DNA from: Gammaproteobacteria bacterium
GTDB taxonomy: Bacteria > Pseudomonadota > Gammaproteobacteria > GCA-001735895
Reading direction: 5' to 3'
NCBI GenBank assembly: GCA_009937625.1
Contig: JAACFA010000029.1
Location: 1-51,522 of the forward strand
DNA length: 51,522 nt
Positions 1-15,736 of this stretch are shown here, one piece after another. The position numbers and the translations under genes were made by a program. Position 1 is the first letter of the stretch. Each line of letters opens with the position of its first letter. Below the pieces are notes generated by a model that made no database searches, was not told where the DNA came from, and worked only from the letters and a program-made list of their open reading frames with translations.

Positions 1-229
1 TATCGTTGATAAAGCTGATCTCACTGCTGGCCTGGTAGGTGCTCATCAGGGCCTCGATGCGGCGCATCTCGGCGAAGGCTTTTGCGCTGCAGTCGGTTGC
101 GACGACGGCTTCAGGATGCCAGAGCTCAAGCGAGGCGCGGGTACCCATGATATCGCGCTGTTGCTGATACCACTCGGCATGCAGCAGGGAGGATTGAATC
201 AGAAGCGCCAGCAGCAGCACGCCCCTCAT
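1..229 (-). CDS. apbE: FAD:protein FMN transferase (ApbE), N-terminal part; the gene runs off the left edge of the window
   Basis: Not in the ORF track because there is no stop in the window. Hand translation of the minus strand from ATG 229..227 gives MRGVLLLALLIQSSLLHAEWYQQQRDIMGTRASLELWHPEAVVATDCSAKAFAEMRRIEALMSTYQASSEISFIND... This shows a signal peptide, then the MGT and MS.Y...SE.S..N motifs I associate with ApbE N-termini. Confidence 0.6.
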   Translation of the reverse strand, partial: MRGVLLLALLIQSSLLHAEWYQQQRDIMGTRASLELWHPEAVVATDCSAKAFAEMRRIEALMSTYQASSEISFIND

Positions 230-296
230 TCGAAAAGGGAGAAGCCAGTCGCGCAAAATTTCGACTCGTTTCGACGTCAAGTAATGACGAGTACGC

Positions 297-1976
297 CTAA
301 ACTCTGATGTTTCCGAACGATATATAGCTATCCAGGTTGTTGCCGAGCCCGTGGTTGGGGAACGCGGTGGTAAACGCCGTCGTGTTGCCCGGTGAAACCA
401 TGCCATTAGCGGCCATGTAGTTTAGCATGATCATGTTGACCAGCAAATTGATGTTGTTGGCCGCGGGTGACGAGCTGGTCACCACCGATGCGCCCGCGTT
501 CATGTAGCCGATCTGCCGGCTGCCGACCAGGTTCGGCGGACTATTCGGATTGTAAACCAGGAAGAACGAGCAGGCCGTGGACGAGTTGTCGCCGGTCCAT
601 TCGCCTTTGCCGCCGCCGCCGACAGTGAGGTTGTTGTTGCCGTCGGTACCGCCGTTTGGCGCCGCGGAATCGTCGAGCCGGCCGTTGCTCGCGACCGAGC
701 CGTCGCTGAACACGTATATCATCAGGGGTTCGCCTTTCAATGCGGCGTACTGCAGGCAGGCGCCGATGCAGCGTCCGGCGCGCAGATCGCGGTTTTCGCC
801 GGCGATGCGATCGCCGGTGTGATAATCGTACCCGCCCATGGTGACACAGCCGCCGATGGCATAGCGGTTAACGACCATTTTCATGACCGAGGCGGTCTTG
901 CGGAACTCGCGGTCGTTTGCCAGCTCGGCTGCGCTGAACGGCGCCAGCGGGTTACCGGGAACGAGGCCCGGGGGAGAAGTAACATCGCGATTGATTAGCG
1001 GGTCGCCCAACGGATCGACCGGGACACCCGCAAACTCACTAGCGATGTCGGCAGCTTTCAAGTAGCCGCAGCGTACCATGTCCTTGATGATGTCGTCGTT
1101 GCTAAGCCCGGTAGCGACACCGGCTTTCATCTTATAATGCGATACACGCGCCATCGACTCCATCACCGCGGTGACATCGTTGGGGCCGAGGATGGAGGTC
1201 AGGTCGCCGACGTCTACCATGCCGGTGACGTCGGTTGGCTGGTCCACCTTGGTTGGCTGGAATTCGGGGTTGATGTACATCGCCGGCGCCATCGAGTTAC
1301 CACCTGAAACGCTCGAGCGAGAACCGATCAGATCGACAACCTCGCCACGAACGCTAGGGTCGGTCATGACCAGCGCGTAGAGCGGATTGTGCGGGTTGTT
1401 GCCGGTGTCATTGTCGGACCGGGCCGGAATGACGGCGCCGTCGACATTGCCGATTGCGCTACCCGCCTTTTCGCGAATACCCAACAACAGCGGGCTGTCG
1501 GCGTGGAAGGCCAGGTTCAATTCGCGATTGATGTAGTCGTTATTTGCGCTAGGATTCAACAGTGTTTCGGTTTGTGTTTGTCCGGGCAGCATGTCGCCCG
1601 GCAGCCCGAGCTTGCTGTAACCCGCGGTCGAAAGAAAATCCTCTTGCCCACCCGAATCCCCGACCAGCACGTTAGAGCCTGCGAAATTGGCGCCGCCGGC
1701 CAGGTCGAAACAGATGAAGGGCACGTTCGTGCCGCCTCCGCCACTCAGCGTGCAGCCCGGCAACGCGCCTACCAGGTCATCGAGATCCGGCGATAGCGCC
1801 GCGTAGGCGTCCCGGGGGTTGGCGAACAGGCTCAGCACACCACCGGTCAGCAGCGAGGCGCCGCCAGCGGTGAAGCCCTGGCGAACGAACTGGCGCCGGG
1901 ACATCGGCTTGCCGTGATCCTCGTGCAGCAGGGGAGCGTCGGGATGTACTGACTGTTTTTTCTTGAATCTGGCCAT
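297..1976 (-). CDS. Tat-exported protein of unknown function, distantly DUF1501 / alkaline-phosphatase-superfamily-like
   Basis: Track ORF 297..2030. I prefer the internal ATG at 1976 (MARFKKKQ...) because it clears the stop of the upstream gene at 1988. It has a twin-arginine motif (SRRQFVRQGF), a hydrophobic stretch and an AYA-type cleavage site. MGGYDYHTGDR resembles the GGWDTH motif I recall from DUF1501. Confidence 0.7.
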   Translation of the reverse strand: MARFKKKQSVHPDAPLLHEDHGKPMSRRQFVRQGFTAGGASLLTGGVLSLFANPRDAYAALSPDLDDLVGALPGCTLSGGGGTNVPFICFDLAGGANFAGSNVLVGDSGGQEDFLSTAGYSKLGLPGDMLPGQTQTETLLNPSANNDYINRELNLAFHADSPLLLGIREKAGSAIGNVDGAVIPARSDNDTGNNPHNPLYALVMTDPSVRGEVVDLIGSRSSVSGGNSMAPAMYINPEFQPTKVDQPTDVTGMVDVGDLTSILGPNDVTAVMESMARVSHYKMKAGVATGLSNDDIIKDMVRCGYLKAADIASEFAGVPVDPLGDPLINRDVTSPPGLVPGNPLAPFSAAELANDREFRKTASVMKMVVNRYAIGGCVTMGGYDYHTGDRIAGENRDLRAGRCIGACLQYAALKGEPLMIYVFSDGSVASNGRLDDSAAPNGGTDGNNNLTVGGGGKGEWTGDNSSTACSFFLVYNPNSPPNLVGSRQIGYMNAGASVVTSSSPAANNINLLVNMIMLNYMAANGMVSPGNTTAFTTAFPNHGLGNNLDSYISFGNIRV

Positions 1977-1987
1977 GATTTCGAATC

Positions 1988-4645
1988 CTATTGTACGATC
2001 ATTACGGCGGCGCCAGTTGCGGCGGCACAAACTGCCTTCACGATTTGCTCGGTTCTCTCGACCGGGTCGCAGCTTGTCGCCGGTGGAATTATCGGGCAGG
2101 AAGCCATCATCTGGGTGATCAGGCTGTCGTATTGAGTATCGACAAAGCCCGGATCGAGGGCTTGTGCCGACGTCGCACCCAGAATATTAGAAATTTCAAT
2201 ATCCGCAGGTTGCGTTGACAGACCCAGCGGTGAGTTGGTGACCGCTTCCAAAACCCGATCGATGATGGCGGCTCGCTGAGCAGGAGCGAATGCGGTCAGG
2301 TAATCGGTACCGAAACCGGCGAAGCTCGGGAAGTAACTCGCCGGGGTGATCGAACCGTTGCCGTCGACCAGCTCGCTGCACGAGGTCAGCGCGAGCTGCG
2401 CAACCGCCATCTGGTGCGACGGCAGGAAGGCGTCGATAGCCTCGGTCGACGGTAACTGCTGGACATAGTCGCTATAGACACCAGCGACCGCGGGATTGGT
2501 TACGGACACGCCGGTGATCTCGGCGATGGTCGTGTTGATTTCCTCGAAGGTGCGTACGCCGATATCTGATTCTACCGGGCTTCCGGGATTAGCCGGATCG
2601 GCTGGAACTGTCGGCACAATTTCGGAAAATGCGTTAGTCACGCCATTGAAGTCCTCGAAAGTCAGGAAGAACTCGTCGCTGTCGGGGCCTTTCTCGAGTG
2701 CGATAATGGTACCCTTTGAGGACAGTTCCTGGCCGGTCGCAGGATCATATGTGGCGGCGACAACGCTAGTGTCGAGGTTGGCATAAGACTGCCCTGCCAG
2801 CGCCTCCTTGCCGTTGATGCCAATCCGCAGGCCCTTGATATTTATGTCCGCGCCTGGAGTGCTGCCATCGAGGGTGACAAACGTGGGTTTGTTGAACAGG
2901 TAACTGTAGCTGTCGAACTGTGCCACCTCGAACATGATGAAGCTCTGAGGGTTCCCCACTTCGCCCAGGTGATGGCCAACGTAAAACAGCAGGAAGAATT
3001 TCTGGCCGACGCCAACATCGAAGTTTTGCTGAATCTGGGCCTGGGTCAGCGGCTGGTTATGAATCGCGACCATTTTTACCTGGCCCATCCACGGCCGCGC
3101 ACCCGAGGTTTCGTTGCCGAGGAGAAAGGCGAAGGTATCGTCCCAGACATTGGCGATGGTTGGGCCGGGTCCTACTGGATCGGCGGCATTAACCAGCTGG
3201 CCGTTAACGTAAATGCTGCGAGGATTCGGTTCTAGCGGGTCATAGTTCACGACCACGTGCTGCAGGCTGGCCTGCGCCAGCTCTTCACCACTGTCTCCGG
3301 TCGTCAGAGCAGGGTCGCCATTGGGTGCAGGGTTCGGCACGTCGAGACGATTGTAGGCCTCGTAGTTGTACATGTCCTGGCCGAGCGTGAAGTTACGCTG
3401 GGTATCGCCACCCGAGTAGCTGACGATATTAGCGTCTTCCTGGGTTACGTTGGCCGGAATCACCCAGGCTTCGATCGCATATTTACCGGTTTCCTGGATG
3501 TAGGTATAGAGCTTGTCACTGCTAATGGTGTCAGCCTGCGCGCGGCCGCCGGTAAATTCGAGGCCGTATCCGCCAACCCAGTTGACGCTGCCGATCAGCG
3601 ACAGGTTGATAGCCGGATCGACACCACTGGTATCGAAGGCGGTCAGGCCGCTGCCGATTTTGAACTCCCACAGTGCGAACTGGTCAGTTTCATGCCGGTT
3701 GCCTCCGGAAGCGATAATACCTTCGCCCAGGGTCAACGCCATGCTGGTAACCAGGTTCGAGTCGATCGAGGTCGCCGTAATTCCGCTAGCGAAGGCAGCA
3801 ATCCTGTCTCTCATCAGGCGGGCGTCGGTGCCGGCCTCAAATTGATCCGTACCGCAATTGGACCAGCAGTTATGTTGTTCCGCGATCAGTTTTTGTACAA
3901 AGCGCGAGCTGTCCGGCGCATCGATGTCCATCTTCGGTTTAGCGGCCTCGTAGGCAGCGTTCAGATCACCGCTGGCAAAGAAGGGTGCCTGCGCGAGTCC
4001 CGCCGAGTTTTCGTCGTGGCATTCCTGGCAGTTCCCATCGGCGATAAACGGATCAGTACCCACCAGCAAGGGATAAACCGTAGCCGCGAAGGCAGCCGGA
4101 TCGACTGGAAAGGATCTGGAGTCACCCGGATTCCGAATGCTGGCCGGAGCGATTAGGTTGATCTCTCGCGCGGCAACACCGCCACTCGATGCATTGATCC
4201 AGTCATCGATCCAGCCGGCAATCAGGGTGCCGCAGACCGAGGATACGCTCTCCCAGCAAAAGTGGCCGTTATTGAGTTTGTCGACAATTTCGGAATTCAG
4301 CGGGTTTGCCAGGTCGATCTTCGGCGAAGGTGGATTAGTCATCAACTCGTCATAAGCTACGTTGACATTGGCGGTATCGAAGAAAAACGGCGATACCGGG
4401 GAAGATGCCTGCGAGTTGTGACATCCGCCGCAACGGCTGTCTTCGATTACATTGCGCCACAGGTAATACTGAAAATTAGCGACATCGATGCTGCGCGCCG
4501 CGGGACCGCTGTAGAAAAACCCCGTAGCGGCTATGCTTGTATCCGGGTTGGAACTCGTGCCGACGCTACCCGTATCGCAAGCCGACAGTAGAGCGCCAAA
4601 CGCGAGTACACAAATCTTGTTTAGAAAAGAGCGATATTTTGTCAT
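1988..4645 (-). CDS. Lipoprotein with two CXXCH haem-attachment motifs (duplicated N-terminal module) and a LamG/concanavalin-like region
   Basis: Track ORF 1988..4651. ATG at 4645 is preceded by GGGAG and lies 2 nt after the stop of the upstream gene. Lipobox LLSAC. Motifs CGGCH and CQECH. The middle region (NFTLGQDMYNYEAYNR... WMGQVKMVAIHNQPLTQAQIQQNF) looks LamG-like. Confidence 0.75.
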   Translation of the reverse strand: MTKYRSFLNKICVLAFGALLSACDTGSVGTSSNPDTSIAATGFFYSGPAARSIDVANFQYYLWRNVIEDSRCGGCHNSQASSPVSPFFFDTANVNVAYDELMTNPPSPKIDLANPLNSEIVDKLNNGHFCWESVSSVCGTLIAGWIDDWINASSGGVAAREINLIAPASIRNPGDSRSFPVDPAAFAATVYPLLVGTDPFIADGNCQECHDENSAGLAQAPFFASGDLNAAYEAAKPKMDIDAPDSSRFVQKLIAEQHNCWSNCGTDQFEAGTDARLMRDRIAAFASGITATSIDSNLVTSMALTLGEGIIASGGNRHETDQFALWEFKIGSGLTAFDTSGVDPAINLSLIGSVNWVGGYGLEFTGGRAQADTISSDKLYTYIQETGKYAIEAWVIPANVTQEDANIVSYSGGDTQRNFTLGQDMYNYEAYNRLDVPNPAPNGDPALTTGDSGEELAQASLQHVVVNYDPLEPNPRSIYVNGQLVNAADPVGPGPTIANVWDDTFAFLLGNETSGARPWMGQVKMVAIHNQPLTQAQIQQNFDVGVGQKFFLLFYVGHHLGEVGNPQSFIMFEVAQFDSYSYLFNKPTFVTLDGSTPGADINIKGLRIGINGKEALAGQSYANLDTSVVAATYDPATGQELSSKGTIIALEKGPDSDEFFLTFEDFNGVTNAFSEIVPTVPADPANPGSPVESDIGVRTFEEINTTIAEITGVSVTNPAVAGVYSDYVQQLPSTEAIDAFLPSHQMAVAQLALTSCSELVDGNGSITPASYFPSFAGFGTDYLTAFAPAQRAAIIDRVLEAVTNSPLGLSTQPADIEISNILGATSAQALDPGFVDTQYDSLITQMMASCPIIPPATSCDPVERTEQIVKAVCAAATGAAVMIVQ

Positions 4646-4647
4646 GA

Positions 4648-6039
4648 TCAACTCCCTTTGCAGTAAGCCGCGACTTCGGTGAAGACTTCGCGCATGTTGT
4701 AACCGCTGCCAACGAAGTTGGAGACGAACCCGTCACGGGCGCTGCGGTCGGCTGACATTACATTGGGATCGCGCAGGCAAACCGCCTCGAAGGCTTTATC
4801 GACCTGGCACTGCGCGAAGGCCTTGCTGTTGGCGAGTTCGACTCCGAGGGAGCTGGCGCCAGTACCGATAGCGTTACCTTTGGCGTCTAGCGTTTCTCCG
4901 GGATGACCCCATCCCAGCGTGCCGGCCGGATGGACGTTGGGAGGTGCGGTCGGAGGGCGAACACCGAGTTTCGAATTTGGGCCGTTGCGCCAGTAGTTGA
5001 TCCAGCTGTCGTCGGTGACCGCATGCCCATACTCGAAGTTGTTGGCGTTGATATTGTGCTTCAACGAAACATCGTCGGGAATCCCATCGGCCAGCCCATC
5101 GTCGCCGAACAGCGGACTGGTGGTCGCGGCATACAGCATGATACCGTCGTCCGGATCTTGCGGATCTTGCGTGTCCCATTCGTACTTGGCGAAAGCACCG
5201 GCCATGCCGTCCATGCCGGCGTGGCAGCCAACGCAGCCGTTCATGTAGAGGCGGCTATCGCCGCCCGGGCTGCGCGATACGTCGCGGCGCACATAATCTG
5301 GAGCTCGCGAGACGTCCTTGATCGGCTCCAGGTCAGTGCACAAATGATTCATCAGGGTGAAGCGGAACATCGCGCGATTGGTGCCGGCGGAGAAAAACGC
5401 CTTGGCTCCGGCGCGGCTGGTCATGATTCCGGCCGCGGGGATGCCGGGCCTGACCGAGGACTGGGTTCGTGGTACCAGAATTGATTGATCAGCGAGGTTA
5501 CCCGCTGACTTTGGATCTAAAGCCTCGAGCGCTTCGTAGTGAGCATTGCTGTCGTTGGCATAACCGGGAGTAATACCATCGCCAAGATAGAGCAGATCGT
5601 CGTAAAGAATGCGTCGAAAATCGATCTCGTCACGTATTGCGCCGACTATGGTTGCGCTGTAATCGTTTAACGGGGCAAAGACGGTCTGCTCCTCGTTGGT
5701 CCAGGGAGCTGCGAAATTTTTCAACGTGACATTGTAAAACGCGTACGCGTTTGGATTACCCGCATCAGGGTTGTGCTGCGTCGTGTCGATAGCGTAACGT
5801 GCGGCGTTTTCGCCAGTTCCATCGCAAGGGTAGCCCGGTGTTTCGGGTAAACTGCAGTCGAGGGTGGCTTCCATGGCGTCGATAACGGCGTTGGTCGCGC
5901 TAATCCCGGTAAGTCGATCGTGGATTCGCTTGGCCATGGCGCGTTCTGCATCACCTGCCCAGATCGATTGGGTTGCCATCATCGCCAGCAACGCCGGCAA
6001 TACCAATATTTTCGTCTTCATTCCCATGGATTTCCCCAT
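4648..6039 (-). CDS. Exported protein with a single CXXCH motif (DUF1588-like CxxCH..D..G signature), function unknown
   Basis: 463-aa ORF. AGGAGAAA lies immediately upstream of ATG 6039. Signal peptide KILVLPALLAMMATQSIWA. CVGCHAGMDGMAGAFAKYEW resembles the CxxCHxxxDPxG motif I recall from DUF1588-type proteins. Confidence 0.75.
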   Translation of the reverse strand: MGKSMGMKTKILVLPALLAMMATQSIWAGDAERAMAKRIHDRLTGISATNAVIDAMEATLDCSLPETPGYPCDGTGENAARYAIDTTQHNPDAGNPNAYAFYNVTLKNFAAPWTNEEQTVFAPLNDYSATIVGAIRDEIDFRRILYDDLLYLGDGITPGYANDSNAHYEALEALDPKSAGNLADQSILVPRTQSSVRPGIPAAGIMTSRAGAKAFFSAGTNRAMFRFTLMNHLCTDLEPIKDVSRAPDYVRRDVSRSPGGDSRLYMNGCVGCHAGMDGMAGAFAKYEWDTQDPQDPDDGIMLYAATTSPLFGDDGLADGIPDDVSLKHNINANNFEYGHAVTDDSWINYWRNGPNSKLGVRPPTAPPNVHPAGTLGWGHPGETLDAKGNAIGTGASSLGVELANSKAFAQCQVDKAFEAVCLRDPNVMSADRSARDGFVSNFVGSGYNMREVFTEVAAYCKGS

Positions 6040-6183
6040 TTTCTCCTGGTTGTCGCTGCTATCGAAGTCCCAGTCATTAAAACTACATGACCATGAAACC
6101 TAGCACAGTGGTAACAGGCCTACGTAACTAAGACCGCGGGAATATTTCACTTTATCGAAAATACCCCTGATCGATACCCTTTA

Positions 6184-6220
6184 AGCTGATATAAATATTT
6201 CAGCTATAAATGTTTCAGCT
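6184..6220. promoter_or_regulatory. Operator-like repeat cluster in the divergent intergenic region
   Basis: AGCTGA-N10-TCAGCT inverted repeat (6184-6205) overlapping a tandem 15-mer ATAAATATTTCAGCT / ATAAATGTTTCAGCT (6191-6220). It lies in an AT-rich 397-bp gap between divergently transcribed operons. Confidence 0.35.
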
Positions 6221-6436
6221 CTAACCCGATCTGTTTTAATAATCCATACAAAATCCTTAGGTAAGTTTACGAGAGTGGGATGGACTTCCGTATACCGTCT
6301 GTAAGGAAAAAAGGGCGTTCTGTCCGAATTCGGAAGCAGGAGCCACAGGGTCGAAGTTACACTAAAGTCCAGTGCTGGAGCGGCTTTCGCGGAGATTTCT
6401 CGAAGATAAGGTATTACCGAACCAAACATTTAGATT

Positions 6437-9319
6437 ATGAAAATACAGGCCCTAGATTTTGAAAACTCGCGCATGCAATCCATAACAAAGTGGATTAGGC
6501 TGACGTTTTTATGCGTGGCGATTCTGATGCTCGGCGCCTGCGATTCGGGCTCGTCAGGGGATGGCGGAATCGATCCCGGCATCCTCGAAATTCCGGTCGC
6601 GTTTATCAAACGCCCGGTACCGGTCGATGACATGGGTGACGACGAGAACATCGATTTGCGCGAACCGCGGCTGTTCATGGCTGGCGGCGATGTCTACCTG
6701 CGAACCAGCAGCGCCAGCGATGCCACCGTGACTAATATTACGAGCTCGGTGACCAACGGCATTGGCGACGTGAAAGGGCTGAATTCGAACCATGACGGCA
6801 CCAAGCTTATATTTTCGCTGCGACTGTTCGACCCCGACCCGAACAATCCGCCTTTTCCGACCTGGAATGTTTATGAGTATGATCTCGAAACCTCTCAGTT
6901 GCGCCGGATCATATCGAGTGCGACGATTGCCGAGCAGGGCGATGATCTCTACCCGAGTTATCTGCCCGATGGTCGTATTGTGTTTACGTCGAACCGGCAG
7001 AAGCAATCGCAGGAATTGCTGAACAACGAGGGTAGGACGAGATATGCGGCCCTTGACGAGGACGAGGGTGTCAAGGCGCTCGTGTTGCACGTGATGGATG
7101 CCACCGGCGACCCGCTGAGTATCCGCCAGATATCGTTCAACCAGAGTCACGATCTTTATCCGCAGGTGCTAACCCATTACCAGGATGGGCGCATCGTTTT
7201 CAGCCGCTGGGATAATGCCGCCGGCAACAACGAAGTCAATATTTACACCGCGAATCCTGACGGCAGCGACCTGGAAATCCTGTACGGTTCGCAAAGCCAT
7301 GCGACCGGCACCGGTGGCGCTAATATCCAGTTCACCAACTTCCGTGAGATGGAAAACGGGGATTTGATGGTGATCACCAGGCCCTTCGACGGCACTTTTG
7401 GCGGTGGCGCTATCGAGATCATCAGCGTTGATCGGTTCGTGGATAACCAAAAGTCGATCTGGCCATTGAATGACCCGGGTCCGGCGCAAAGGCGCGCCAC
7501 GGTCTCTAACGTCAACAACTCCGGCTCGCTCTCGCTTACTGGGCGCTACAATTCTGCGTTTCCGCTATGGGACGGCTCGAATCGCATGCTGGTCACCAAA
7601 TCCACCTGCCGGCTTCTCGATGCGAATAACGTGCAAAGACCTTGCATCGATCCTTACCTGGATGATCTCGGGGCCGGGTCTGTGGAAAAATCACCGGCCT
7701 ACGGTATCTGGCTCTACGACAGGGATGAGGATACGCAAAGACCCGTCGTGCTGGCGGAACAGGGCATGGTCATGACCGATGTCGTTACGCTGCAAAATCG
7801 AACCCGTGCTCCGATTATTTTCGACAAGAAGCTGGTCGGTCAGCTTGATACGGATTGGGAGCGTGACCAGGTCGGTGTCGTCAATATCAAGAGCGTTTAC
7901 GATATGGGCGACGGAACTTTCGACAGGTGTTTCTTTAACCTGTGCAACAGTGACCCCACAATCACCTCGGTACAGGATTTTGCCGACCCGGCGAAGGCGA
8001 TTGCGGACGAAAGGCCGGCGCGCTTCGTGCGTTTCATCAAGCCGGTCGGTATTCCCGATCCTGACGATCCGGCGCTGGTCAACCCGCCGGACCTCGATAA
8101 TAATGCTTTCGGCCCGCAACGTAACCGGGGCATGCGCGAAATTGTCGGATACGCGCCAGTCGAGCCCGACGGTTCGGTCAAGGTCAAGGTGCCTGCCAAT
8201 ACCCCGCTCGCGGTCGAGGTTCTCGATGGTGAGGGGCGCCGCATCGGCCCGCGGCACGACAATTGGTTCCAGGTGTTGCCGGGCGATACGCTTACCTGTG
8301 CTGGCTGTCACGATCCGAATGACGGCAGCCCGGACGTGCATGCGCGCAGCGATGGCGATGCGCCATCGATCAATAGCGGCGTAGCCGGCGGTCCACTCGT
8401 GAACACGCTAATCCAGGGGACCGCTGCACCGAATCCCTATATCGGGGCTCCGGGTCAGACCCTGGCGGAAGTGCGATTCGACAGTTACGCGCTTGCCATA
8501 CCCGTGCCTCCGGAACCGCCGGCGATCGAGCCAGAGCTGAGCGCCGATTTGATTTACGTCGATTACTGGACCGATGATCCGGGCGTACGTCCGAAAGACG
8601 CTTTTTACATGTATGATTATGCATCGCTCGCTCCGACACCGCTCGCTCCTAATACCAATCCTCCGATATTGCCGCCGACCAATACGTTTTGCGCGCCCTG
8701 GGAGTATCGATGCCGGGTGACGATTAACTATGCGGAACATATCCACGCGATCTTCCAGCTCGATCGCGATCTGAACAACGTTGACGATTTCACGCCGCTG
8801 GCGCCGGCCAATCCGCTAGCAAGCGATTCGACCAATACCCCGCTAGTGGTGGATACGGTGAATCTGGATGGTGTAGGTGATGAGACCTGCGTCAGCTGTC
8901 ACACCACCACTACCGCCAACGGCACCCAGGTGCCCTATGGTCAGCTCGACTTGACCACTGATCCTAACCCGGATCCGAACGATCGCTTCAGGTCGTTCCA
9001 GGAAATGTTCAATACCCGGCAGGGTCGATTCTTCGACGGCATGAACCTGCAAATCTTTACCGTACCCGACGGGATGGGCGGTAGTATTCCAGATCCCGCG
9101 GCACAGATCGCCCCGATCATGACAGCGGCCGGTGCTCGCAACAGTTATTTCATCGAGAAAATGACGTCGACCGAACTGGATGCGGGTCGCGCGATCAGCG
9201 GGACGGTGGATCATTCGGGCATGCTTACGGATGCCGAGTTGAAAATGATCAGTGAGTGGATCGATCTCGGTGCGCAAAATTTTAACAACCCATTTGACCC
9301 GGCAGCGCCACAAAACTGA
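6437..9319 (+). CDS. Lipoprotein with an N-terminal PD40/TolB-like beta-propeller and a C-terminal region carrying two CXXCH motifs
   Basis: 960-aa ORF with lipobox LMLGAC. PD40-like repeats: DGTKLIFSLR, YLPDGRIVFTSNR, HYQDGRIVFSRWD, ANPDGSDLEILY. CAGCHD and CVSCHT motifs in the C-terminal half. The start could also be M13 (6473). Confidence 0.75.
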   Translation: MKIQALDFENSRMQSITKWIRLTFLCVAILMLGACDSGSSGDGGIDPGILEIPVAFIKRPVPVDDMGDDENIDLREPRLFMAGGDVYLRTSSASDATVTNITSSVTNGIGDVKGLNSNHDGTKLIFSLRLFDPDPNNPPFPTWNVYEYDLETSQLRRIISSATIAEQGDDLYPSYLPDGRIVFTSNRQKQSQELLNNEGRTRYAALDEDEGVKALVLHVMDATGDPLSIRQISFNQSHDLYPQVLTHYQDGRIVFSRWDNAAGNNEVNIYTANPDGSDLEILYGSQSHATGTGGANIQFTNFREMENGDLMVITRPFDGTFGGGAIEIISVDRFVDNQKSIWPLNDPGPAQRRATVSNVNNSGSLSLTGRYNSAFPLWDGSNRMLVTKSTCRLLDANNVQRPCIDPYLDDLGAGSVEKSPAYGIWLYDRDEDTQRPVVLAEQGMVMTDVVTLQNRTRAPIIFDKKLVGQLDTDWERDQVGVVNIKSVYDMGDGTFDRCFFNLCNSDPTITSVQDFADPAKAIADERPARFVRFIKPVGIPDPDDPALVNPPDLDNNAFGPQRNRGMREIVGYAPVEPDGSVKVKVPANTPLAVEVLDGEGRRIGPRHDNWFQVLPGDTLTCAGCHDPNDGSPDVHARSDGDAPSINSGVAGGPLVNTLIQGTAAPNPYIGAPGQTLAEVRFDSYALAIPVPPEPPAIEPELSADLIYVDYWTDDPGVRPKDAFYMYDYASLAPTPLAPNTNPPILPPTNTFCAPWEYRCRVTINYAEHIHAIFQLDRDLNNVDDFTPLAPANPLASDSTNTPLVVDTVNLDGVGDETCVSCHTTTTANGTQVPYGQLDLTTDPNPDPNDRFRSFQEMFNTRQGRFFDGMNLQIFTVPDGMGGSIPDPAAQIAPIMTAAGARNSYFIEKMTSTELDAGRAISGTVDHSGMLTDAELKMISEWIDLGAQNFNNPFDPAAPQN

Positions 9320-9370
9320 ATTTCAAGCTAAACTCCTTTAGTGGCTCAACAATAATACGGGACTAAAAAC

Positions 9371-10186
9371 TTGAGACGATTCAAGGGGATTCTTTTGCCC
9401 GTGTTATTACTATTTATAGCCGCTAGCTGTCAGGCAACCCATGCTCAGACGGCAGAAGAGGATGCCTACGTGGCCGCGCCAGCGGAACCGGCAGCGGAAG
9501 ACGAGGCAGGGTATCGGGTCAAGATTGCCGATCCGTTTATCGAGCTGCATACCGGCCCGGGCGGCGGCTACCCGATTTATTATGTGATCGATCGCGGTGT
9601 CGAGGTGCGCGTGCTGCGCCGCAAGACCGACTGGTACAAGCTCGTCACCGACGATGGTAAAACCGGCTGGGCCAGTCGCGCGCAGATGCAGCAGACGCTG
9701 TTGCCCTCGGGTGAGCAGTTCCAGTTGATAGAGGTCGATCGGGAAGATTTTCTGCAACGCAGATGGATGGTCGGTGTGACGGGTGGCGAGTTCGAAGAAG
9801 CACCGGTCTTTACGCTGTTTGCCGCCTATTCGTTTACCGAAAACCTGGCCGCAGAAGTACATTTCGGTAAATCGGTAGGAGACAGATCCAGCGCCACCTA
9901 TATAAAGGGAAACATGATCATGCAGCCCTGGGCGGATTTCAAGTATTCGCCCTACTTTTCGCTGGGGCTGGGTCAAATAGAGGTCGATCCTAGTGCCACC
10001 CTGATTGCGGTGGACGACGAAGACAACTCTTTTGCCCAGGTCGGCATCGGGGTGCAGCGTCACCTGAGCCGCAACTTTCTGGCTCGATTCGAATTTAACG
10101 AGTACGTTATTTTTTCTGCCAGCAGTGTTAGCAACAACAACGAGGAAGTAAAAGAGTGGAAATTCGGTTTCGCAGTATTTTTCTAG
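9371..10186 (+). CDS. SH3b-domain plus outer-membrane beta-barrel protein
   Basis: 271 aa with a signal peptide (LLLFIAASCQATHA). SH3b-like stretch YRVKIADPFIELHTGPGGGYPIYYVIDRGVEVRVLRRKTDWYKLVTDDGKTGWA. Alternating beta-strand pattern, and a C-terminal ...WKFGFAVFF typical of OM barrels. TTG start. Confidence 0.7.
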   Translation: MRRFKGILLPVLLLFIAASCQATHAQTAEEDAYVAAPAEPAAEDEAGYRVKIADPFIELHTGPGGGYPIYYVIDRGVEVRVLRRKTDWYKLVTDDGKTGWASRAQMQQTLLPSGEQFQLIEVDREDFLQRRWMVGVTGGEFEEAPVFTLFAAYSFTENLAAEVHFGKSVGDRSSATYIKGNMIMQPWADFKYSPYFSLGLGQIEVDPSATLIAVDDEDNSFAQVGIGVQRHLSRNFLARFEFNEYVIFSASSVSNNNEEVKEWKFGFAVFF

Positions 10187-10809
10187 CGATCGCGTTTGCT
10201 GTCGCTTTTTTGCCGGCTACCGAGGTTGCGGCGCAGAGCGAGGAAGACGAACAGACGAATCTGATCGAACCCCAGATCGAACGTACCGAGTTCGATGAAT
10301 CATTGATTGAAACCGATGATTTCGAAATCGCGGTTTACGCGGGCTACCTGGCGGTCGAAAATTTCGATACCAACCTCGTCTACGGCGCCAGGCTGGGCTA
10401 TCACGTAACGGAAGATTTTTTCGTACAGGTCGCCTACGGTACCAGCGAGGTCGGGGAAACCAGTTTCGAGATTCTTGATCCGGGTGCGACGCTACTATCC
10501 GATGACCAGAGAGAGCTCGAGTATTACCTCTTCACGCTGGGATTTAACCTGTTCCCGGGTGAGGCATTTATCACCGATTCGACTACATTTAATACAGTGT
10601 TTTACCTGATCGGTGGAATCGGCAACACGGAGTTCGCGGGCGAAGACGCGTTTACCATCGTCTATGGCGTGGGACACCGGACTTTATTTCTCGATGGATT
10701 CAGCGTGGATGTGGAGATGCGGGATTTGATATTTGAGCAGGATATTTTCGGTGAGGAAGAATCCACCAACAACCTCGAGTTAACCGTGTCACTGAACTTG
10801 TTTTTTTAA
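10156..10809 (+). CDS. Small outer-membrane beta-barrel protein (OmpA-like/OmpW-like fold class)
   Basis: 217 aa with signal peptide IFLAIAFAVAFLPATEVAAQ, an acidic linker, amphipathic beta strands and a terminal ...LTVSLNLFF. GTG start overlapping the previous gene by 31 nt, so the exact start is uncertain. Confidence 0.65.
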   Translation: MEIRFRSIFLAIAFAVAFLPATEVAAQSEEDEQTNLIEPQIERTEFDESLIETDDFEIAVYAGYLAVENFDTNLVYGARLGYHVTEDFFVQVAYGTSEVGETSFEILDPGATLLSDDQRELEYYLFTLGFNLFPGEAFITDSTTFNTVFYLIGGIGNTEFAGEDAFTIVYGVGHRTLFLDGFSVDVEMRDLIFEQDIFGEEESTNNLELTVSLNLFF

Positions 10810-10821
10810 AGGAGAATAATC

Positions 10822-11334
10822 ATGAAGAGCATGTTATCGCGAACCTGTTTGAGCCTGGCACTTTTGTGCTCGCTATCGTTTATGATTTCGAGCCCTGCGC
10901 AGGCCGCCGCTGGTGCCGGCCCGGCCCCTAATTTCACGTTAAAATCGCTCAGCGGGAAAAACCTGAAGCTCAGCGAAATGACGGGCAACGTGGTATTGAT
11001 CAACTTCTGGGCATCCTGGTGTGGTCCCTGCCGCGAGGAAATGCCATTGTTGAATGAGCTGCATAAAAAGTACGAGCCGCTGGGATTCACCGTGCTTGGC
11101 GTCAACGTCGAGGAAGATGTAAGAAATGCCAGGGGTTTTCTTAAAGACTTCCCGGTTGATTTTCCGGTCTTGCTCGATAGCAAGAACCAGGTTAGCAAGC
11201 AATACAACGTGATTGCGATGCCGACCACCGTGGTAGTCGATCGAGATGGTAACATGCGGTTTTTGCACAAGGGGTACAAGCCGGGTGACGAAGACAAGTA
11301 CCGCAAGATGGTCAAGAAACTGGTGCGCGAGTAA
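10822..11334 (+). CDS. TlpA/ResA-family periplasmic thiol:disulfide oxidoreductase
   Basis: 170 aa. AAAGGAG RBS, signal peptide, and thioredoxin-fold active site WASWCGPC. Confidence 0.9.
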   Translation: MKSMLSRTCLSLALLCSLSFMISSPAQAAAGAGPAPNFTLKSLSGKNLKLSEMTGNVVLINFWASWCGPCREEMPLLNELHKKYEPLGFTVLGVNVEEDVRNARGFLKDFPVDFPVLLDSKNQVSKQYNVIAMPTTVVVDRDGNMRFLHKGYKPGDEDKYRKMVKKLVRE

Positions 11335-11339
11335 CTTTA

Positions 11340-11564
11340 ATGAAAATAATAAATATTTTTCCAGCTATAGCGGGCCTGATGCTGCTTTCGGGCTGTGCCA
11401 CCGAACCCTGGGTCAAGCCCTATGAAAGGGCGAACCTGGCGGATCCGATCATGAGCTTTAACCGTGACCCGATATCGGCGAATTACCTGCACCACGTTTA
11501 CGATACGCGTGAAGGTGCCCGTGGCGCCGGCATTGCCACGGGCGGCGGCTGCGGCTGTAACTAG
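11340..11564 (+). CDS. DUF4266-type small lipoprotein
   Basis: 74 aa with lipobox LLSGC and a C-terminal GGGCGCN tail, which I recall as characteristic of DUF4266. It sits between TlpA and DUF3570, as in the known conserved neighbourhood. Confidence 0.8.
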   Translation: MKIINIFPAIAGLMLLSGCATEPWVKPYERANLADPIMSFNRDPISANYLHHVYDTREGARGAGIATGGGCGCN

Positions 11565-11720
11565 CGGTTAATCCCGTTGCCGGAAACTGTTTGCGAAGCG
11601 CTGTCAGAAAAGTGGTTGAATCGTTATTTAGCAGTCCTGGCCCGCGAGATGGCCGGTATTTACGGCTTGTTTCCGGTATCGAAATCCCGCTATCGGGCCA
11701 GCGGGTGTGTTGCTGATCCG

Positions 11721-12839
11721 ATGCGAATTGTATTTTTCTTATTATTAGTTATTGCCGCGAAGGCTGGCGCGGCCGTGCTGCCGGACGAGCGTGCGGACCT
11801 GCTTTACCACAAGTACGATGGCGGCGGGGTGGAAGTCGACGGGCCGTCGGTGCTGGTGCGTAAAAACGTCGGCGACAGCGTGTCGGTTGGTGTGAATCAC
11901 TACGTCGACAATGTCACCAGCGCGTCGATCGATGTCGAGGTAAGCGCCAGCGAGTATACCGAGGAGCGCACGGAGAGTAATGTTAGTCTCGATTACCTGC
12001 GGCAGAAGACGACCGTCAGCTTCGGCTACACGGTCAGCGACGAGAGCGATTACGAAGCCAAGACCCTGAGTCTGGGTGTTTCGCAGGATTTGTTTGGTGA
12101 TCTAACCACGGTCAGCATGTCGTTCGCTTACGGCGATAATACGGTCGGTCGCAACGGCGATGATGATTTCGAGGAAGAAGCCAAGGTGCGCAGTTACCGC
12201 TTCGGTATCTCCCAGATCCTCACCAAGAGCCTGGTGATGGCGTTTACGCTGGAAACCATCACCGACGAAGGCTATCTCAACAATCCTTATCGCTCGGTTC
12301 GCTATTGCAGTAATCCCGATTGTACGGCCGACGCATTTGAAGGGGAGCTTTATCCGGAGACACGCACCAGCAATGCGGTCGCGGTTCGGGGAAATTACTT
12401 CCTGCCGCAACGTGCCGCCCTTCATGCGGGCGTGCGCTACTTCGAAGACAGCTGGGATATCGAGGCGACCACTTTCGAACTCGGTTACACCATGCCCTAC
12501 GGCGAAAACATTATTCTCGAAGCCACCTATCGTTTCCACGATCAAACCAGTGCCGAGTTTTACAGCGACCTGTTTCCGGGCTTGGAGGCAACGAGTTATC
12601 GGGCCCGTGACAAGGAGCTGAGCACCTTTACCAGCACCACGCTGGGCCTCGGAGCGAGCTATGAATTCGGCCGTTCCTGGGCCAGGATCGACCGTGGCAG
12701 TCTCAATTTGCAGCTCGACTGGATCGATTTCGACTACGACGACTTTCGCGACCTGACCGGTACCGAGCCTGTCGGCAGCGAACCTCTCTACAGCTTCGAC
12801 GCCACCGTCACCCGGGCTTTTGTCTCGATCTGGTTTTAG
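11721..12839 (+). CDS. DUF3570-family predicted outer-membrane barrel protein
   Basis: Track ORF 11577..12839. I prefer ATG 11721 (MRIVFFLLLVIAAKAGAA...) because it gives a signal peptide. Beta-rich with terminal ...AFVSIWF. LLYHKYDGGGVEVDGPS and VDNVTSASIDV fit my memory of DUF3570. Confidence 0.75.
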   Translation: MRIVFFLLLVIAAKAGAAVLPDERADLLYHKYDGGGVEVDGPSVLVRKNVGDSVSVGVNHYVDNVTSASIDVEVSASEYTEERTESNVSLDYLRQKTTVSFGYTVSDESDYEAKTLSLGVSQDLFGDLTTVSMSFAYGDNTVGRNGDDDFEEEAKVRSYRFGISQILTKSLVMAFTLETITDEGYLNNPYRSVRYCSNPDCTADAFEGELYPETRTSNAVAVRGNYFLPQRAALHAGVRYFEDSWDIEATTFELGYTMPYGENIILEATYRFHDQTSAEFYSDLFPGLEATSYRARDKELSTFTSTTLGLGASYEFGRSWARIDRGSLNLQLDWIDFDYDDFRDLTGTEPVGSEPLYSFDATVTRAFVSIWF

Positions 12840-14382
12840 GCGTTCCGCTTTTGGTTTGCTGCTGCCGCTGGTGGCGCAGGCGTCAAGTTCCGACGATTGC
12901 CCGGTCCTGTCAAAAGTCGATATCGAAGCAAATCCGTTAATCACGGAAGCGCGGCAGCGGGAATTGGTCGCTCCGTATCTCGGGTCCTGTATCGACTCCG
13001 ATCTAATCCGACAGCTGCTAGCGGCGATATCGAACGACTTTATCGAAAATGGCTATGTCACGAGCCGTCCCTACCTGCAGGAGCAGGACGTGAGCGACGG
13101 TCAAGTCGAGATCCGGGTTCTGATCGGCACCGTGGAGGCGGTAATCGATGCCGCCAGCGGCGGCCGCAGCGGCAAGATCTCGACCGCTTTTTTATTCAGC
13201 GACGAAATTCTCAACCTGCGCGACCTCGAAACCTCGCTCGAACAGATCGAACGGGTTGCATCGGTCGAGGCCAGTATCGAAATAAGACCCGGGACGCAAC
13301 AGGGCGGCAGTATCGTTGCGATCAAGACAACCGAATCGGATTCGCTTCGCTTCGAGGTTGGCGCCAACGCGCAGTCCGATCTCGACAACCAGCTCAGTTT
13401 TTTCATGAACTGGGACAATCCTCTCGACATCAATGACATACTGCAGCTGCGACTGAACGACGGCGAGCTGCGGGAAAGTTTCCAGAGCAATCGCAGCCGT
13501 GAACTGTCTTACTCGTTCCCGCTGGGGAAATACCTGCTGGCCCTGAGCCTTGCCGAGATAGAATTCGATCAGCGGATTCAGGGGAGCTTCGGCAGCTTTC
13601 TGTCCGAGGGCGAAACCGATAGCGAACGCATCGTTATCAGCAGGACAGTGGCTCGCAACCAGAGCAATCGTTTGACTGTCGCGCTGGCCCTCGAGCTCGA
13701 CGATACCGAAAACTTTCTCGAGAACGAACGGATCGATGTGTCGAGTTACAAGACTACCCAGCTGCTGCTGGAACTACATCATGACTGGTATCAACCCTGG
13801 GGCCAGCTCGGCCTGCGCTACGGTTTCCGCCAGGGGTTGGACTCGTTCGGGGCCAGGGACGACGATTATTTCACGCGCACCGATGATTCCGCGAGCGAGG
13901 CGCGCCTGCAGTTCGAAATGTTCAGTATCGACGGCAGATTGATTTACCTGCTCGGCAATCCGGACCGGTACCTCGATCTGAACCTTTATTTTCAGCATAG
14001 CGACGATATCCTGTTCGATAGCGATAAGCTCGATCTCGGCAGCCCCTATACCGTGCGAGGATACTCCTCTGCGCTGAGCGGCAGTAATGGCTGGTATCTG
14101 CGCAATGACGTTACCTGGCAATTCCGGTCCGTGGCCAACCCGTTCGGCGGGAAGAGTCTGACCAAATCGATCGCGCTGTCCTTAGGTCTCGATTACGGTG
14201 AAGTCAAATGCGAAATCGATAACCAGGACGTCTGCGGGGATATCTATGGCGCAGCCCTCGGGCTGGTGGTCTGGGATGCGAATTTTAGCGGGCGCCTGCT
14301 GTGGGGCCACCCGTTGAAGGAAGTCGATAACGGGATCGGCGACGAGGATCGCTTCCTGCTGGACTTGCGCTGGAGTATTTGA
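12820..14382 (+). CDS. ShlB/FhaC/HecB-family (TpsB-type) POTRA-containing outer-membrane transporter
   Basis: 520 aa with a signal peptide. POTRA-like ITEARQRELVAPYLGSCIDSDLIRQLLAAISNDFIENGYVTSRPYLQEQDVSDGQVEIRVLIGTVE, and the PYTVRGY motif. Overlaps the end of the DUF3570 gene by 20 nt. Confidence 0.8.
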   Translation: MSRSGFRRSAFGLLLPLVAQASSSDDCPVLSKVDIEANPLITEARQRELVAPYLGSCIDSDLIRQLLAAISNDFIENGYVTSRPYLQEQDVSDGQVEIRVLIGTVEAVIDAASGGRSGKISTAFLFSDEILNLRDLETSLEQIERVASVEASIEIRPGTQQGGSIVAIKTTESDSLRFEVGANAQSDLDNQLSFFMNWDNPLDINDILQLRLNDGELRESFQSNRSRELSYSFPLGKYLLALSLAEIEFDQRIQGSFGSFLSEGETDSERIVISRTVARNQSNRLTVALALELDDTENFLENERIDVSSYKTTQLLLELHHDWYQPWGQLGLRYGFRQGLDSFGARDDDYFTRTDDSASEARLQFEMFSIDGRLIYLLGNPDRYLDLNLYFQHSDDILFDSDKLDLGSPYTVRGYSSALSGSNGWYLRNDVTWQFRSVANPFGGKSLTKSIALSLGLDYGEVKCEIDNQDVCGDIYGAALGLVVWDANFSGRLLWGHPLKEVDNGIGDEDRFLLDLRWSI

Positions 14383-14440
14383 TCGCCGACCGGTGGCCCT
14401 GACCACGACGGTCGGATCGACGACTGCGCGCAGCAAATAC

Positions 14441-15736
14441 CTATAACTGGCGTTCGGTAATGTCTTCGCGCTGATCCAGCTGTTCGACTTCGTGCTTGGC
14501 GACCGCCTCGGCATAGCCGAGCGAATCGGGCGCAATATATTCCGCGATCGGGGTGCCGACCGGACCTGCAATCAGCGTCGACTGGTCGCCGACCGCAATC
14601 CCCGCACTTGAACCTATCCGTATCAGGGTAAAAAAGAAAATAATTGCAAATACCGTTGCGATGCCCCAGAAATACAACTCCACACCAAACAGCTCCATGA
14701 AGAATGCGATCACGATAGGCCCGGTCATCGCGCCAAATCCCGCGACCATGACCAGGCTGCCGCTGGCGCCGACGATTTGATGTGGCTCGAGGCGGTCGTT
14801 GGCATAGGCGATGCAGATCGAATACATCGGCATTGCTGCGCCGCCGAGCGCGACGATGACCAGGTAGAACCCTAGGCTGTCCTTGCTGATTACCACTGCC
14901 AGGATGCTGCAGACAATCGAAATCAGCGACAGTCCCGCCATCACGCCGCGCCGACCGACCAGGTCTGAAATGTGGCCGACCGGCCACTGGAACACCAGGC
15001 TGCCGATCAGGAAACAGGCCATGAACAGCGAAATGGATTTTAAATCCACCAGAACCTGGGACGCGTAAATGGCGCCCAGGCCGAAGATGGTGCCATGCGC
15101 CATGCCGGTCAGGCAGTTACCGATCAGGGCCAGGGGAGACGCCCGGTAGAGTTCGATAATCGACATTTTCGACGAGGTGTTGAAACTGGGAGCGGGTTTC
15201 GCGGTGAGTAAAATCGGTATCAGTCCAAACGATATGATCATTGAAAGCAGAATAAACAGGTCGATGGCATCGGGGCGGGCGACGTTTAGCAGGAATTGGC
15301 CGGCGCCCATGCTACCGGTAACGATCACCATGTATATCGACAGGACTTTGCCACGGGTCTCGTTGCTGGCGCGGTCGTTCAGCCAGCTTTCGGTGACGAC
15401 ATAAAATCCGGCGAAGCTGATACCGGTAATGACACGCATCGCCATCCATAGCCAGGGATCGATATAAACGCCGTGAAACAGGATCGAAATCGACGCCAGC
15501 GAGGCCAGCGCCGAAAACACGCGAATATGGCCGACGCGGTTGACGAGCACGGGTGCCAGCATCGAGCCGATAAACATGCCGATGAAATAACCCGACATCA
15601 TGATGCCGGTGTTGAAAGTCGAAAAGCCCTCGATGCCGGCGCGCACCCCGAGCAGGGTGCCCTGCAATCCGTTGGCCAGCATCATGAAGCCGATGCCGAG
15701 CAGTATCGCCCAGGAGGCGCCAAGGTCTTTCCACAT
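14441..15736 (-). CDS. MFS transporter
   Basis: 431 aa with about 12 predicted hydrophobic helices and MFS-like loop motifs (e.g. NRVGHIRVF, ESWLNDRASNETRGKV). Confidence 0.85.
   Translation of the reverse strand: MWKDLGASWAILLGIGFMMLANGLQGTLLGVRAGIEGFSTFNTGIMMSGYFIGMFIGSMLAPVLVNRVGHIRVFSALASLASISILFHGVYIDPWLWMAMRVITGISFAGFYVVTESWLNDRASNETRGKVLSIYMVIVTGSMGAGQFLLNVARPDAIDLFILLSMIISFGLIPILLTAKPAPSFNTSSKMSIIELYRASPLALIGNCLTGMAHGTIFGLGAIYASQVLVDLKSISLFMACFLIGSLVFQWPVGHISDLVGRRGVMAGLSLISIVCSILAVVISKDSLGFYLVIVALGGAAMPMYSICIAYANDRLEPHQIVGASGSLVMVAGFGAMTGPIVIAFFMELFGVELYFWGIATVFAIIFFFTLIRIGSSAGIAVGDQSTLIAGPVGTPIAEYIAPDSLGYAEAVAKHEVEQLDQREDITERQL

Follow-up and report, generated by a model that had tools for sequence, protein, structure and literature searches.

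Proteins that carry haem-type, flavin-type and thiol motifs are encoded side by side at positions 1-14382 of a 51,522-nucleotide stretch of gammaproteobacterial DNA (NCBI GenBank assembly GCA_009937625.1, contig JAACFA010000029.1; the whole stretch is referred to here as the window), and the question raised by this locus is whether they act together or are only neighbours. A six-frame listing of open reading frames (ORFs) and their translation show region 1-14382 to be the larger part of an envelope gene cluster of about 13 genes. Its products are ApbE, a flavin adenine dinucleotide (FAD):protein flavin mononucleotide (FMN) transferase; P1, exported by the twin-arginine translocation (Tat) route; the lipoproteins P2 and P4; the secreted protein P3; the small barrels P5 and P6; a TlpA-like thiol oxidoreductase; the lipoprotein DUF4266; the barrel DUF3570; and a TpsB-type transporter (Table 1). 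Export signals were recognized by eye on all 11 products, and these readings are backed by the lipobox Cys of P2, P4 and DUF4266 and the Arg pair of P1, each at least 90% conserved in orthologue alignments. An earlier note on this DNA had proposed one conserved unit at the outer envelope; in our estimate the odds are about even (a probability near 0.5) that the cluster is a single redox unit using both FMN and haem.

Conservation of the neighbourhood is the evidence that bears most directly on this reading. Ten P4 homologues were aligned and used in a profile scan of one genome per GTDB species, by which relatives of P4 were found in at least 583 species-level genomes; the best 80 of these at least 583 loci were taken with 10-kb flanks, 47 having complete flanks and 45 being informative, and the cluster proteins were placed on them by tblastn. 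As the loci were chosen through P4, it is P4 that is shown to travel with DUF3570, and not the reverse. In 45 of 45 informative loci, all of different species, P3-P2-P1 are divergent from P4-P5-P6-(TlpA)-DUF4266-DUF3570, with P4 identity falling to about 37% among loci that keep the cluster. The hosts include the Olavius algarvensis Gamma3 symbiont, Candidatus Thiodiazotropha, Sedimenticola, Woeseiaceae, Steroidobacteraceae, Kangiellaceae, Chromatiales and Nevskiaceae, among others, and one carrier is in culture, Lentisalinibacter sediminis C23 (Woeseiaceae, locus L025). All 47 loci with full flanks have P2 and P3; P5 occurs in 46 of them, P1, P6, DUF4266 and DUF3570 in 45 each and TlpA in 41. 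The same order and strand were recovered by automated ORF calls in 35 of the 41 loci with every core gene, and the difference in the other six is provisionally attributed to start-codon choice. As controls, the cluster's neighbours in the window (an MFS transporter and PhnD-like, MttB-family and DAO-family genes) were looked for in the same loci, and they are kept in only 1-4 of the 45. Two loci that seemingly lack half of the cluster, L012 and L044, are scaffolds with runs of 100 N exactly at the break points; their gene losses are thus scaffold gaps, and the cluster is present in every informative locus.

The gaps inside the cluster lie at 7244-7343 and 11936-12035 of L012 and at 5847-5946 and 13122-13221 of L044. 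These two loci come from 'complete chromosome' records of metagenome-assembled genomes (MAGs), CP070646.1 and CP070821.1, in which the gaps cut short P4 and P2 and give rise to false gene absences.

The position of ApbE varies: it lies directly after P1 in eight loci, directly after DUF3570 in seven and 1-2 kb beyond P1 in six. Its separation from the TlpA-DUF4266-DUF3570 trio, which the earlier note had taken as a special feature, is therefore one of several arrangements, and no locus was seen with apbE beside the trio and the haem-motif block absent, the block being held by all seven loci in which ApbE directly follows DUF3570. A further block, made up of a 203-aa secreted protein and tetratricopeptide repeat (TPR) proteins, stands at the P1 end in 29 loci and at the DUF3570 end in four. 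Gene content that is conserved while its order is shuffled between the two operon ends is a classical signature of functional coupling. The TpsB gene is a different case, as it is found at this position in only 3 of the 47 full loci and 7 of the 80 overall, nearest relatives only (L008, L010, L011, L014, L015, L021, L024). No TpsA partner was seen, the gene downstream being an MFS transporter on the other strand, and no TPS domain was matched among the cluster products in Pfam. TpsB is a lineage-specific addition outside the core, because it is confined to the closest relatives and lacks a TpsA. The proposal of one conserved unit thus passes the test of synteny and is supported in part, with the amendments that TpsB falls outside it and that it extends past the start of the window.

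The haem motifs are conserved along with the genes. As measured in 55-78 orthologues per protein, taken from the loci, all five CXXCH motifs of the cluster are at least 90% conserved, His included: one in P3 (C269/C272/H273; 70 orthologues), two in P2 (C74/C77/H78 and C208/C211/H212; 60 orthologues) and two in P4 (C621/C624/H625 and C818/C821/H822; 78 sequences). Motif coordinates were checked by re-translation, which upholds the total of five that had been reported from the sequence; the report of four large haem-motif genes has to be corrected to three, P1 carrying no CXXCH. A complete System I ccm operon is present at 24225-30786, about 10 kb downstream of the cluster, and includes genes for a ccmA-like ATP-binding cassette ATPase, CcmF, a CcmG-like redoxin and a CcmH/I TPR protein; the organism can therefore make c-type cytochromes.

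For the flavin side, a biochemical precedent exists: DUF3570 of Chlorobium luteolum is flavinylated by its ApbE at two [S/T]GA[S/T] sites (Meheust et al., eLife 2021, PMC8238504), and the 2021 study mentioned in the earlier note, in which DUF3570 is an ApbE substrate, is thereby identified. The same study describes clusters of ApbE, DUF3570, a thioredoxin-like protein, in most cases of the PF13899 type, and DUF4266, with DsbD in 227 and absent in 316, whose function 'remains uncertain'. Flavinylation was shown there on proteins without signal peptides, and DUF3570 was mostly in the insoluble pellet; ApbE can thus act on DUF3570 that is not a barrel, making flavinylation before barrel insertion plausible.

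In the cluster described here, DUF3570 has two tandem candidate sites. Site 1 reads D-x-[V/I]-[S/T]-S-A-S across the clade, and site 2 reads [S/T]-[T/G]-A-S or, as in the window, V-S-A-S. In 64 orthologues, conservation is at least 90% for the S-A-S of site 1 and for the A-S of site 2; the acceptor Ser, the Ala at -1 and the Asp at -6 are kept in both sites, with Ser in place of Gly in site 1 and Thr, Gly or nothing at the Gly position of site 2. The ApbE motif of Bertsova and Bogachev reportedly reads Dxx(s/t)gA(T/S), with Gly less strict. Flavinylation-type sites occur in no other cluster protein. A TGAS at residue 393 of P3 was rejected as a flavinylation motif, as it is GAKS in most orthologues and has no upstream Asp. 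The thiol motifs of the module are likewise at least 90% conserved, namely the WxxWCxPC of the TlpA-like protein and, in 65 sequences, the lipobox Cys and the G-G-G-C-G-C-N tail of DUF4266. The best NCBIfam match of the TlpA-like protein is ResA (5e-36), with both the ResA and the TlpA models under their cut-offs; PF13899 is not among its seven Pfam matches, which include Thioredoxin_8.

An AlphaFold2 model of DUF3570 (26-sequence alignment, 372 residues; predicted local distance difference test score (pLDDT) 73.7, predicted template modelling score (pTM) 0.70) is all-beta, with 16 long strands and a hairpin (16-18 strands in total), and Foldseek matches it to FadL, OprD/Occ, AlgE, PelB and TonB-receptor barrels at 1e-8 to 1e-6. 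In this medium-confidence model both FMN-type sites fall within residues 68-78, a connection of low confidence that joins strands 3 and 4. The long connections of the model, 68-78, 185-213, 284-296 and 344-355, all lead from an odd-numbered strand to an even-numbered one; if the N-terminus is periplasmic, as is usual, they would be extracellular loops and the flavin loop would be L2, which may accordingly lie on the outer face or be folded into the lumen.

P4 matches Pfam HZS_alpha (PF18582) at 1.2e-14 as well as PD40, with weak TolB matches. A profile of the P4 family matches chain A of PDB entry 5c2v, the hydrazine synthase subunit HzsA, with an E-value of 1.3e-10, in an alignment that spans the middle domain and the C-terminal WxDLGAQ region and places a CxGCH of P4 on the haem-binding CSGCH of that chain. 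The domain plan is that of HzsA: a propeller at the N-terminus is followed by a middle domain and a C-terminal domain, each of which bears one CXXCH. Unlike HzsA of anammox bacteria, P4 is a lipoprotein, belongs to non-anammox Gammaproteobacteria and has no HzsB or HzsC, neither being matched among the neighbouring products in Pfam or NCBIfam. Against the NCBIfam HzsA equivalog NF052339 it scores 42.3 bits, over the middle domain only, where the cut-off is 800. By these profile matches P4 is classed as a distant structural relative of hydrazine synthase alpha, and not as a hydrazine synthase. Retention of P2 and P4 in the inner membrane, as might be read from an Asp at +2, was rejected, as +2 is Asp in the nearest relatives only.

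The divergent operon is less well covered by curated families. P3 of the window has no Pfam or NCBIfam match; nine of 13 orthologues match Pfam PSD2/DUF1585 (PF07624; best 3.3e-5), four of 13 weakly match PSCyt3 (PF07627; best 0.064), and a relative of about 29% identity in locus L088 scores 31.1 bits against PSD2, with a cut-off of 25.8. On these matches, P3 is provisionally classed as a divergent, planctomycete-style cytochrome-like protein of the DUF1585/PSD2 type. P2 contains a Laminin_G_3 domain (2.6e-18), and its orthologues weakly match class-I cytochrome c models, Cytochrome_CBB3 in nine of 12 and Cytochrom_C in eight of 12; when the P2 profile was compared with the profiles of P3 and P4, no homology past the CXXCH motif appeared.

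P1 belongs to a family of about 1068 clusters at 50% identity and has no Pfam or NCBIfam match, even with 12 orthologues at E <= 10 and with ten relatives of 31-34% identity; PDB profile searches with 12-sequence and 42-sequence alignments gave nothing meaningful. Invariant in 42 diverse relatives are H21, R27, R28, C75, S161, D190, C303, G382-x-D384-x-H386, D425 and D463, a pattern that looks like a metal or active site and makes P1 a candidate catalytic subunit. Its AlphaFold2 model is poor (pLDDT 49.7, pTM 0.62), and Foldseek gave no significant match (best E 0.1), with 50 of the 50 top matches in the alkaline-phosphatase superfamily; since the model is of low confidence and the matches are insignificant, this fold is not claimed and is kept as a lead only. 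A DUF1501-like assignment was not confirmed, there being no Pfam match to DUF1501 (nor to DUF1552). Several NCBI MAG records (P0134, P0162, P0192, P0211, P0219, P0233) call P1 orthologues 'general secretion pathway protein GspF', a name with no Pfam or NCBIfam support that looks like a propagated misannotation. Before the twin-arginine pair, P15, H21 and P24 are conserved, H21 being invariant in the 42 relatives down to 28% identity; such conservation is unusual for a Tat n-region and may point to a site of processing or one for a dedicated chaperone.

What the analysis shows directly is the gene content with its synteny, the conservation of the cofactor motifs, the fold of the barrel and the kinship of P4 with hydrazine synthase alpha. 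If the cluster is one redox unit, it could work as follows, with cofactor occupancy, electron path and direction, loop topology, substrate and protein contacts all taken conditionally; any one electron path is much less probable than the unit itself. A first module would be the published set of ApbE, thioredoxin-fold protein, DUF4266 and DUF3570, in which periplasmic ApbE would place FMN on two serines of the still-unfolded DUF3570 precursor. DUF3570 would then be inserted into the outer membrane as a barrel of 16-18 strands, carrying its flavins on the strand-3/4 loop at the outer or lumenal side. The flavins would be supplied with reducing equivalents by the TlpA-like reductase, which a DsbD/CcdA from another locus would presumably recharge, together with the flexible CXC tail of DUF4266, an outer-membrane lipoprotein. 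A second module, in the same operon, would consist of P4 as a di-haem propeller lipoprotein together with the barrels P5 and P6; a third, in the divergent operon, would combine the mono-haem P3, the di-haem LamG lipoprotein P2 and the Tat-exported, enzyme-like P1. The haems of P3, P2 and P4 would link the same site to the periplasmic cytochrome pool, with P1 as the probable catalytic end. The 203-aa protein and the two TPR proteins, which travel with ApbE, probably assemble or scaffold the complex, and the SH3/barrel and TPR proteins may hold it at the outer membrane. In a more specific and distinctly doubtful version, DUF3570 would be a flavin-in-barrel electron conduit across the outer membrane, its two FMNs attached covalently to a loop that caps the barrel or reaches down into it. 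They would be reduced from the periplasm by the TlpA-fed CXC tail of DUF4266, by the haems of P4, P2 and P3, or by both, and electrons would pass to or from an extracellular partner.

Several observations weigh against a single redox unit. The two operons are divergent, and promoter and terminator consensus scans found fewer sites than in shuffled controls, which makes these scans uninformative, with no signal above chance. Homologues of the genes at 297-9319 co-occur with DUF3570 in 45 of the 47 full loci, the co-occurrence that the earlier note had proposed as a check, but ApbE is within 10 kb in only 23 and outside the 10-kb flank in 24. The canonical Gly of [S/T]GA[S/T] is absent, the sites of the window being TSAS and VSAS, and the TlpA-like protein is of the Redoxin/AhpC-TSA type as opposed to the PF13899 type of most published DUF3570 clusters. 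Its gene is missing between P6 and DUF4266 in four Woeseiaceae (L025, L077, L081, L083) with the rest intact, so that the thiol reductase is dispensable or supplied in trans there. An inner-membrane point of electron entry (DsbD/CcdA or a quinol dehydrogenase) is not conserved in the cluster, no such recurrent extra gene is found in the 10-kb flanks of the 80 loci, and DsbD was not found among the scanned genes of the window. A metagenome scan for distant P1 relatives with a four-sequence alignment gave two loci, and in one of them, L088 (metagenome contig Ga0169931_10010472), positions 7407-11978 hold genes for P3-like, P1-like and cytochrome-c-like proteins, in this order and with a 189-aa ORF between the first two, among flagellar (FlgD, FliK) and PilZ genes, with no P4 or DUF3570 within 13 kb. 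DUF3570 sets without these haem proteins are in turn found in other phyla (PMC8238504). Each module can thus work alone, and the gammaproteobacterial cluster was put together from older modules and has stayed whole since then. The separate modules, the divergent operons and the lack of any fusion protein joining the modules also fit the view that two or three independent envelope systems are merely adjacent, with no shared electrons or contact; these would be a thiol/flavin module around DUF3570 and a DUF1585-type cytochrome and Tat module with its HzsA-like lipoprotein. Such independence is thought unlikely, as both sides are kept in 45 of 45 loci over family-level divergence while the neighbours turn over, and as P4-P5-P6 share an operon with TlpA-DUF4266-DUF3570, directly upstream of them. 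The occurrence of ApbE and the 203-aa/TPR block at either operon end is also difficult to account for if the two operons do not share a function.

A reading in which P1-P4 form a periplasmic haem enzyme complex and the thiol and flavin genes are accessories outside the electron path would have TlpA keep the apocytochrome CXXCH reduced, as ResA or CcmG does, and DUF3570, P5 and P6 act as substrate channels or anchors. ResA, an apocytochrome reductase, is indeed the best, if sub-threshold, NCBIfam match of the TlpA-like protein, the DUF3570 model resembles the substrate channels FadL, OprD/Occ and AlgE, P2 bears a ligand-binding LamG domain and the TPR proteins resemble assembly factors. The ccm operon of the genome, however, already provides a CcmG; organisms that lack P1-P4 also have the TlpA-like/DUF4266/DUF3570 trio as a unit (PMC8238504), the flavinylation-type sites and CXC tail of the trio are as strongly conserved as the haem motifs, and about half of the loci retain ApbE within the cluster, all of which makes a purely accessory role improbable to a marked degree. 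A machine for transport, outer-membrane tethering or biogenesis, with no redox role and with CXXCH motifs that are structural or metal-binding, could account for the PD40 and weak TolB matches of P4, the YbgF/CpoB-like and BamD-like repeats of the large TPR protein, the SH3 domain of P5 and the presence of three outer-membrane barrels. It is nevertheless considered very improbable: His is conserved in all five CXXCH, one of which aligns with the haem-binding motif of a solved cytochrome, orthologues of P2 and P3 weakly match cytochrome c models, and a dedicated ApbE and a thiol oxidoreductase would be left with no obvious role.

In comparison with the published DUF3570 clusters (PMC8238504), the present cluster shares an extracytosolic ApbE, two tandem sites of flavinylation type in DUF3570, a DUF4266 whose C-terminus carries a CXC and a thioredoxin-fold protein in the periplasm, and has no DsbD nearby, as in 316 of those clusters. 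It differs in its fixed association with six to nine further genes, the additions being three CXXCH proteins, the Tat protein, two small barrels and TPR proteins, as well as in its Redoxin/AhpC-TSA thioredoxin fold, its Gly-less sites and an ApbE that is often genes away on the other operon. The main text of that paper makes no mention of the added genes, of hydrazine synthase or of HZS; the composition appears to be undescribed, on a thin literature check among the few DUF3570 papers.

Porin-cytochrome conduits such as MtrCAB and PioAB/MtoAB encode an outer-membrane barrel together with multihaem cytochromes of about ten CXXCH, the MtrB-type barrel having 26 strands. The likeness of the present cluster to these is one of logic only, in that an outer-membrane barrel is combined with haem-motif lipoproteins and all products are exported. 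No protein here has more than two CXXCH, with counts stable across orthologues, and the DUF3570 barrel has about 16-18 strands in the model and no MtrB-type Pfam match; with neither a multihaem protein nor an MtrB-type barrel, the defining features of porin-cytochromes are missing. The barrel itself bears candidate FMN sites, and a thiol relay is part of the gene set, in both of which the cluster departs from such conduits. Planctomycete cytochrome-like proteins of the DUF1585/DUF1588 (PSD2/PSCyt3) kind have Tat-exported partners, which is mirrored here by the PSD2 matches of P3 orthologues and by the Tat-exported P1 that follows P3, a pair that recurs in L088. Unlike in the planctomycete type, the pair is enlarged by a LamG di-CXXCH lipoprotein and tied to a flavinylation module.

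DUF3570 flavinylation, reported in 2021, is given a fixed set of partners by the cluster: an HZS_alpha-like lipoprotein with two CXXCH, two more CXXCH proteins and a Tat-exported, enzyme-like protein. A vaguely defined flavinylated barrel is in this way turned into a defined 13-gene system that is open to direct testing, in carriers that include lucinid and gutless-worm symbionts, Woeseiaceae and Steroidobacteraceae. Genomic context is also gained for P1, P2 (in which only LamG is assigned) and P3, families with little or no curated coverage. If thiol, flavin and haem carriers do form one relay, this would be a new envelope electron-transfer architecture in abundant marine-sediment bacteria; and should the flavin-in-barrel conduit be correct, it would be a non-multihaem alternative to MtrCAB, widespread in sediment and symbiotic sulfur-oxidising Gammaproteobacteria.

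The features of the region are collected in Table 1, with family assignments from Pfam and NCBIfam scans.

Table 1. Features of the envelope gene cluster at positions 1-14382 of the window.
Feature	Position	Strand	Evidence and remarks
ApbE, N-terminal 76 codons; FAD:protein FMN transferase, periplasmic	1..229	-	gene runs off the window start; translation MRGVLLLALLIQSSLLHA/EW...IMGT
P1, 559 aa, Tat-exported, unnamed family	297..1976	-	SRRQFV twin-arginine signal at 1884-1901
P2, 885-aa lipoprotein	1988..4645	-	lipobox LLSAC; CGGCH and CQECH at 4418-4432 and 4016-4030; LamG; C-terminal half unassigned
P3, 463-aa secreted protein	4648..6039	-	Sec signal peptide; one CXXCH, CVGCH, at 5221-5235
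Divergent intergenic region, presumed promoter region	6040..6436	.	no ORF; AT-richer
P4, 960-aa lipoprotein	6437..9319	+	lipobox MLGAC; CAGCH and CVSCH at 8297-8311 and 8888-8902
P4 domains			PD40/TolB-like propeller; HZS_alpha-like middle domain with CXXCH 8297-8311; C-terminal domain with CXXCH 8888-8902
P5, SH3 domain and small outer-membrane beta-barrel	9371..10186	+	SH3_3 8.6e-11; OMP_b-brl 1.1e-9
P6, small outer-membrane beta-barrel	10156..10809	+	TIGR04565 OMP_myx_plus 3.5e-43, 147 bits against a cut-off of 60
TlpA/ResA/DsbE-like periplasmic thiol:disulfide oxidoreductase	10822..11334	+	WASWCGPC at 11008-11031; Redoxin 5.5e-30; AhpC-TSA 2.5e-29
DUF4266 lipoprotein	11340..11564	+	Pfam DUF4266 (PF14086) 2.7e-21; Gly-rich C-terminal tail ending GGGCGCN, 11538-11561
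DUF3570 outer-membrane beta-barrel	11577..12839	+	Pfam DUF3570 (PF12094) 4.6e-42, 144.7 bits against a cut-off of 25
Two tandem candidate flavinylation sites, DNVTSAS and DVEVSAS	11907..11951	+	loop between DUF3570 barrel strands 3 and 4
TpsB-type (ShlB/FhaC) transporter	12820..14382	+	ShlB 3e-58; POTRA_2 3.6e-18

The order, coordinates and strands of the genes and the export of every product agree between the earlier note and the present ORF calls and translations. Its single string of tightly coupled genes is replaced by two divergently transcribed operons with a 397-bp intergenic region between them, in which there is no riboswitch, an Rfam scan of 1-16000 (E <= 0.1) having given zero matches. 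Gaps of 2 nt (4645/4648), 11 nt (1976/1988) and 5 nt (11334/11340) are right for the starts used. The overlaps at 10156 and 12820 hold with GTG/TTG starts and hinge on that choice; in public gene calls TpsB is 503-508 aa long, with which the overlap at 12820 disappears. The true start of DUF3570 is likely at 11721 (MRIVFFLLLVIAAKAGA/AV), and P6 is paralogous to the barrel of P5. On source contigs ApbE has a full length of 322 aa, a full-length copy on L002 matching the ApbE models of both Pfam (5e-82) and NCBIfam (1.7e-37). The minus-strand operon extends there past ApbE to the 203-aa secreted protein and then two large TPR proteins, with YbgF/CpoB-like and BamD-like repeats matched in the large TPR protein.

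Recurrent extra genes in the flanks of the 80 loci are a zinc-ribbon methyltransferase (nine loci), a DUF3187 outer-membrane protein (nine loci) and, as ordinary neighbours, SecDF. The methyltransferase, 457 aa long, combines a zinc ribbon at its N-terminus with an S-adenosylmethionine methyltransferase domain and is encoded directly downstream of P1 (L027, L033, L036, L043, L049, L072, L077, L081, L083; at about 2.1-4.5 kb in each), while the DUF3187 protein is near the cluster mostly in loci other than these; both may be lineage-specific accessories.

Elsewhere in the window, a CbbQ/NorQ-type AAA ATPase (36902-37744) and the haem A synthase CtaA (COX15; 39844-40917) appear to be routine respiratory housekeeping genes, and nothing evident ties them to the cluster. 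Positions 16731-22044 encode an MttB-family methyltransferase and a DAO oxidoreductase, after which come, in different frames, a DAO fragment of 235 aa (19695-20402) and a GCV_T protein (20752-22044), overlapped by an ORF at 20309-21070; the arrangement looks like a split or frameshifted gene of the dimethylglycine/sarcosine-dehydrogenase type.

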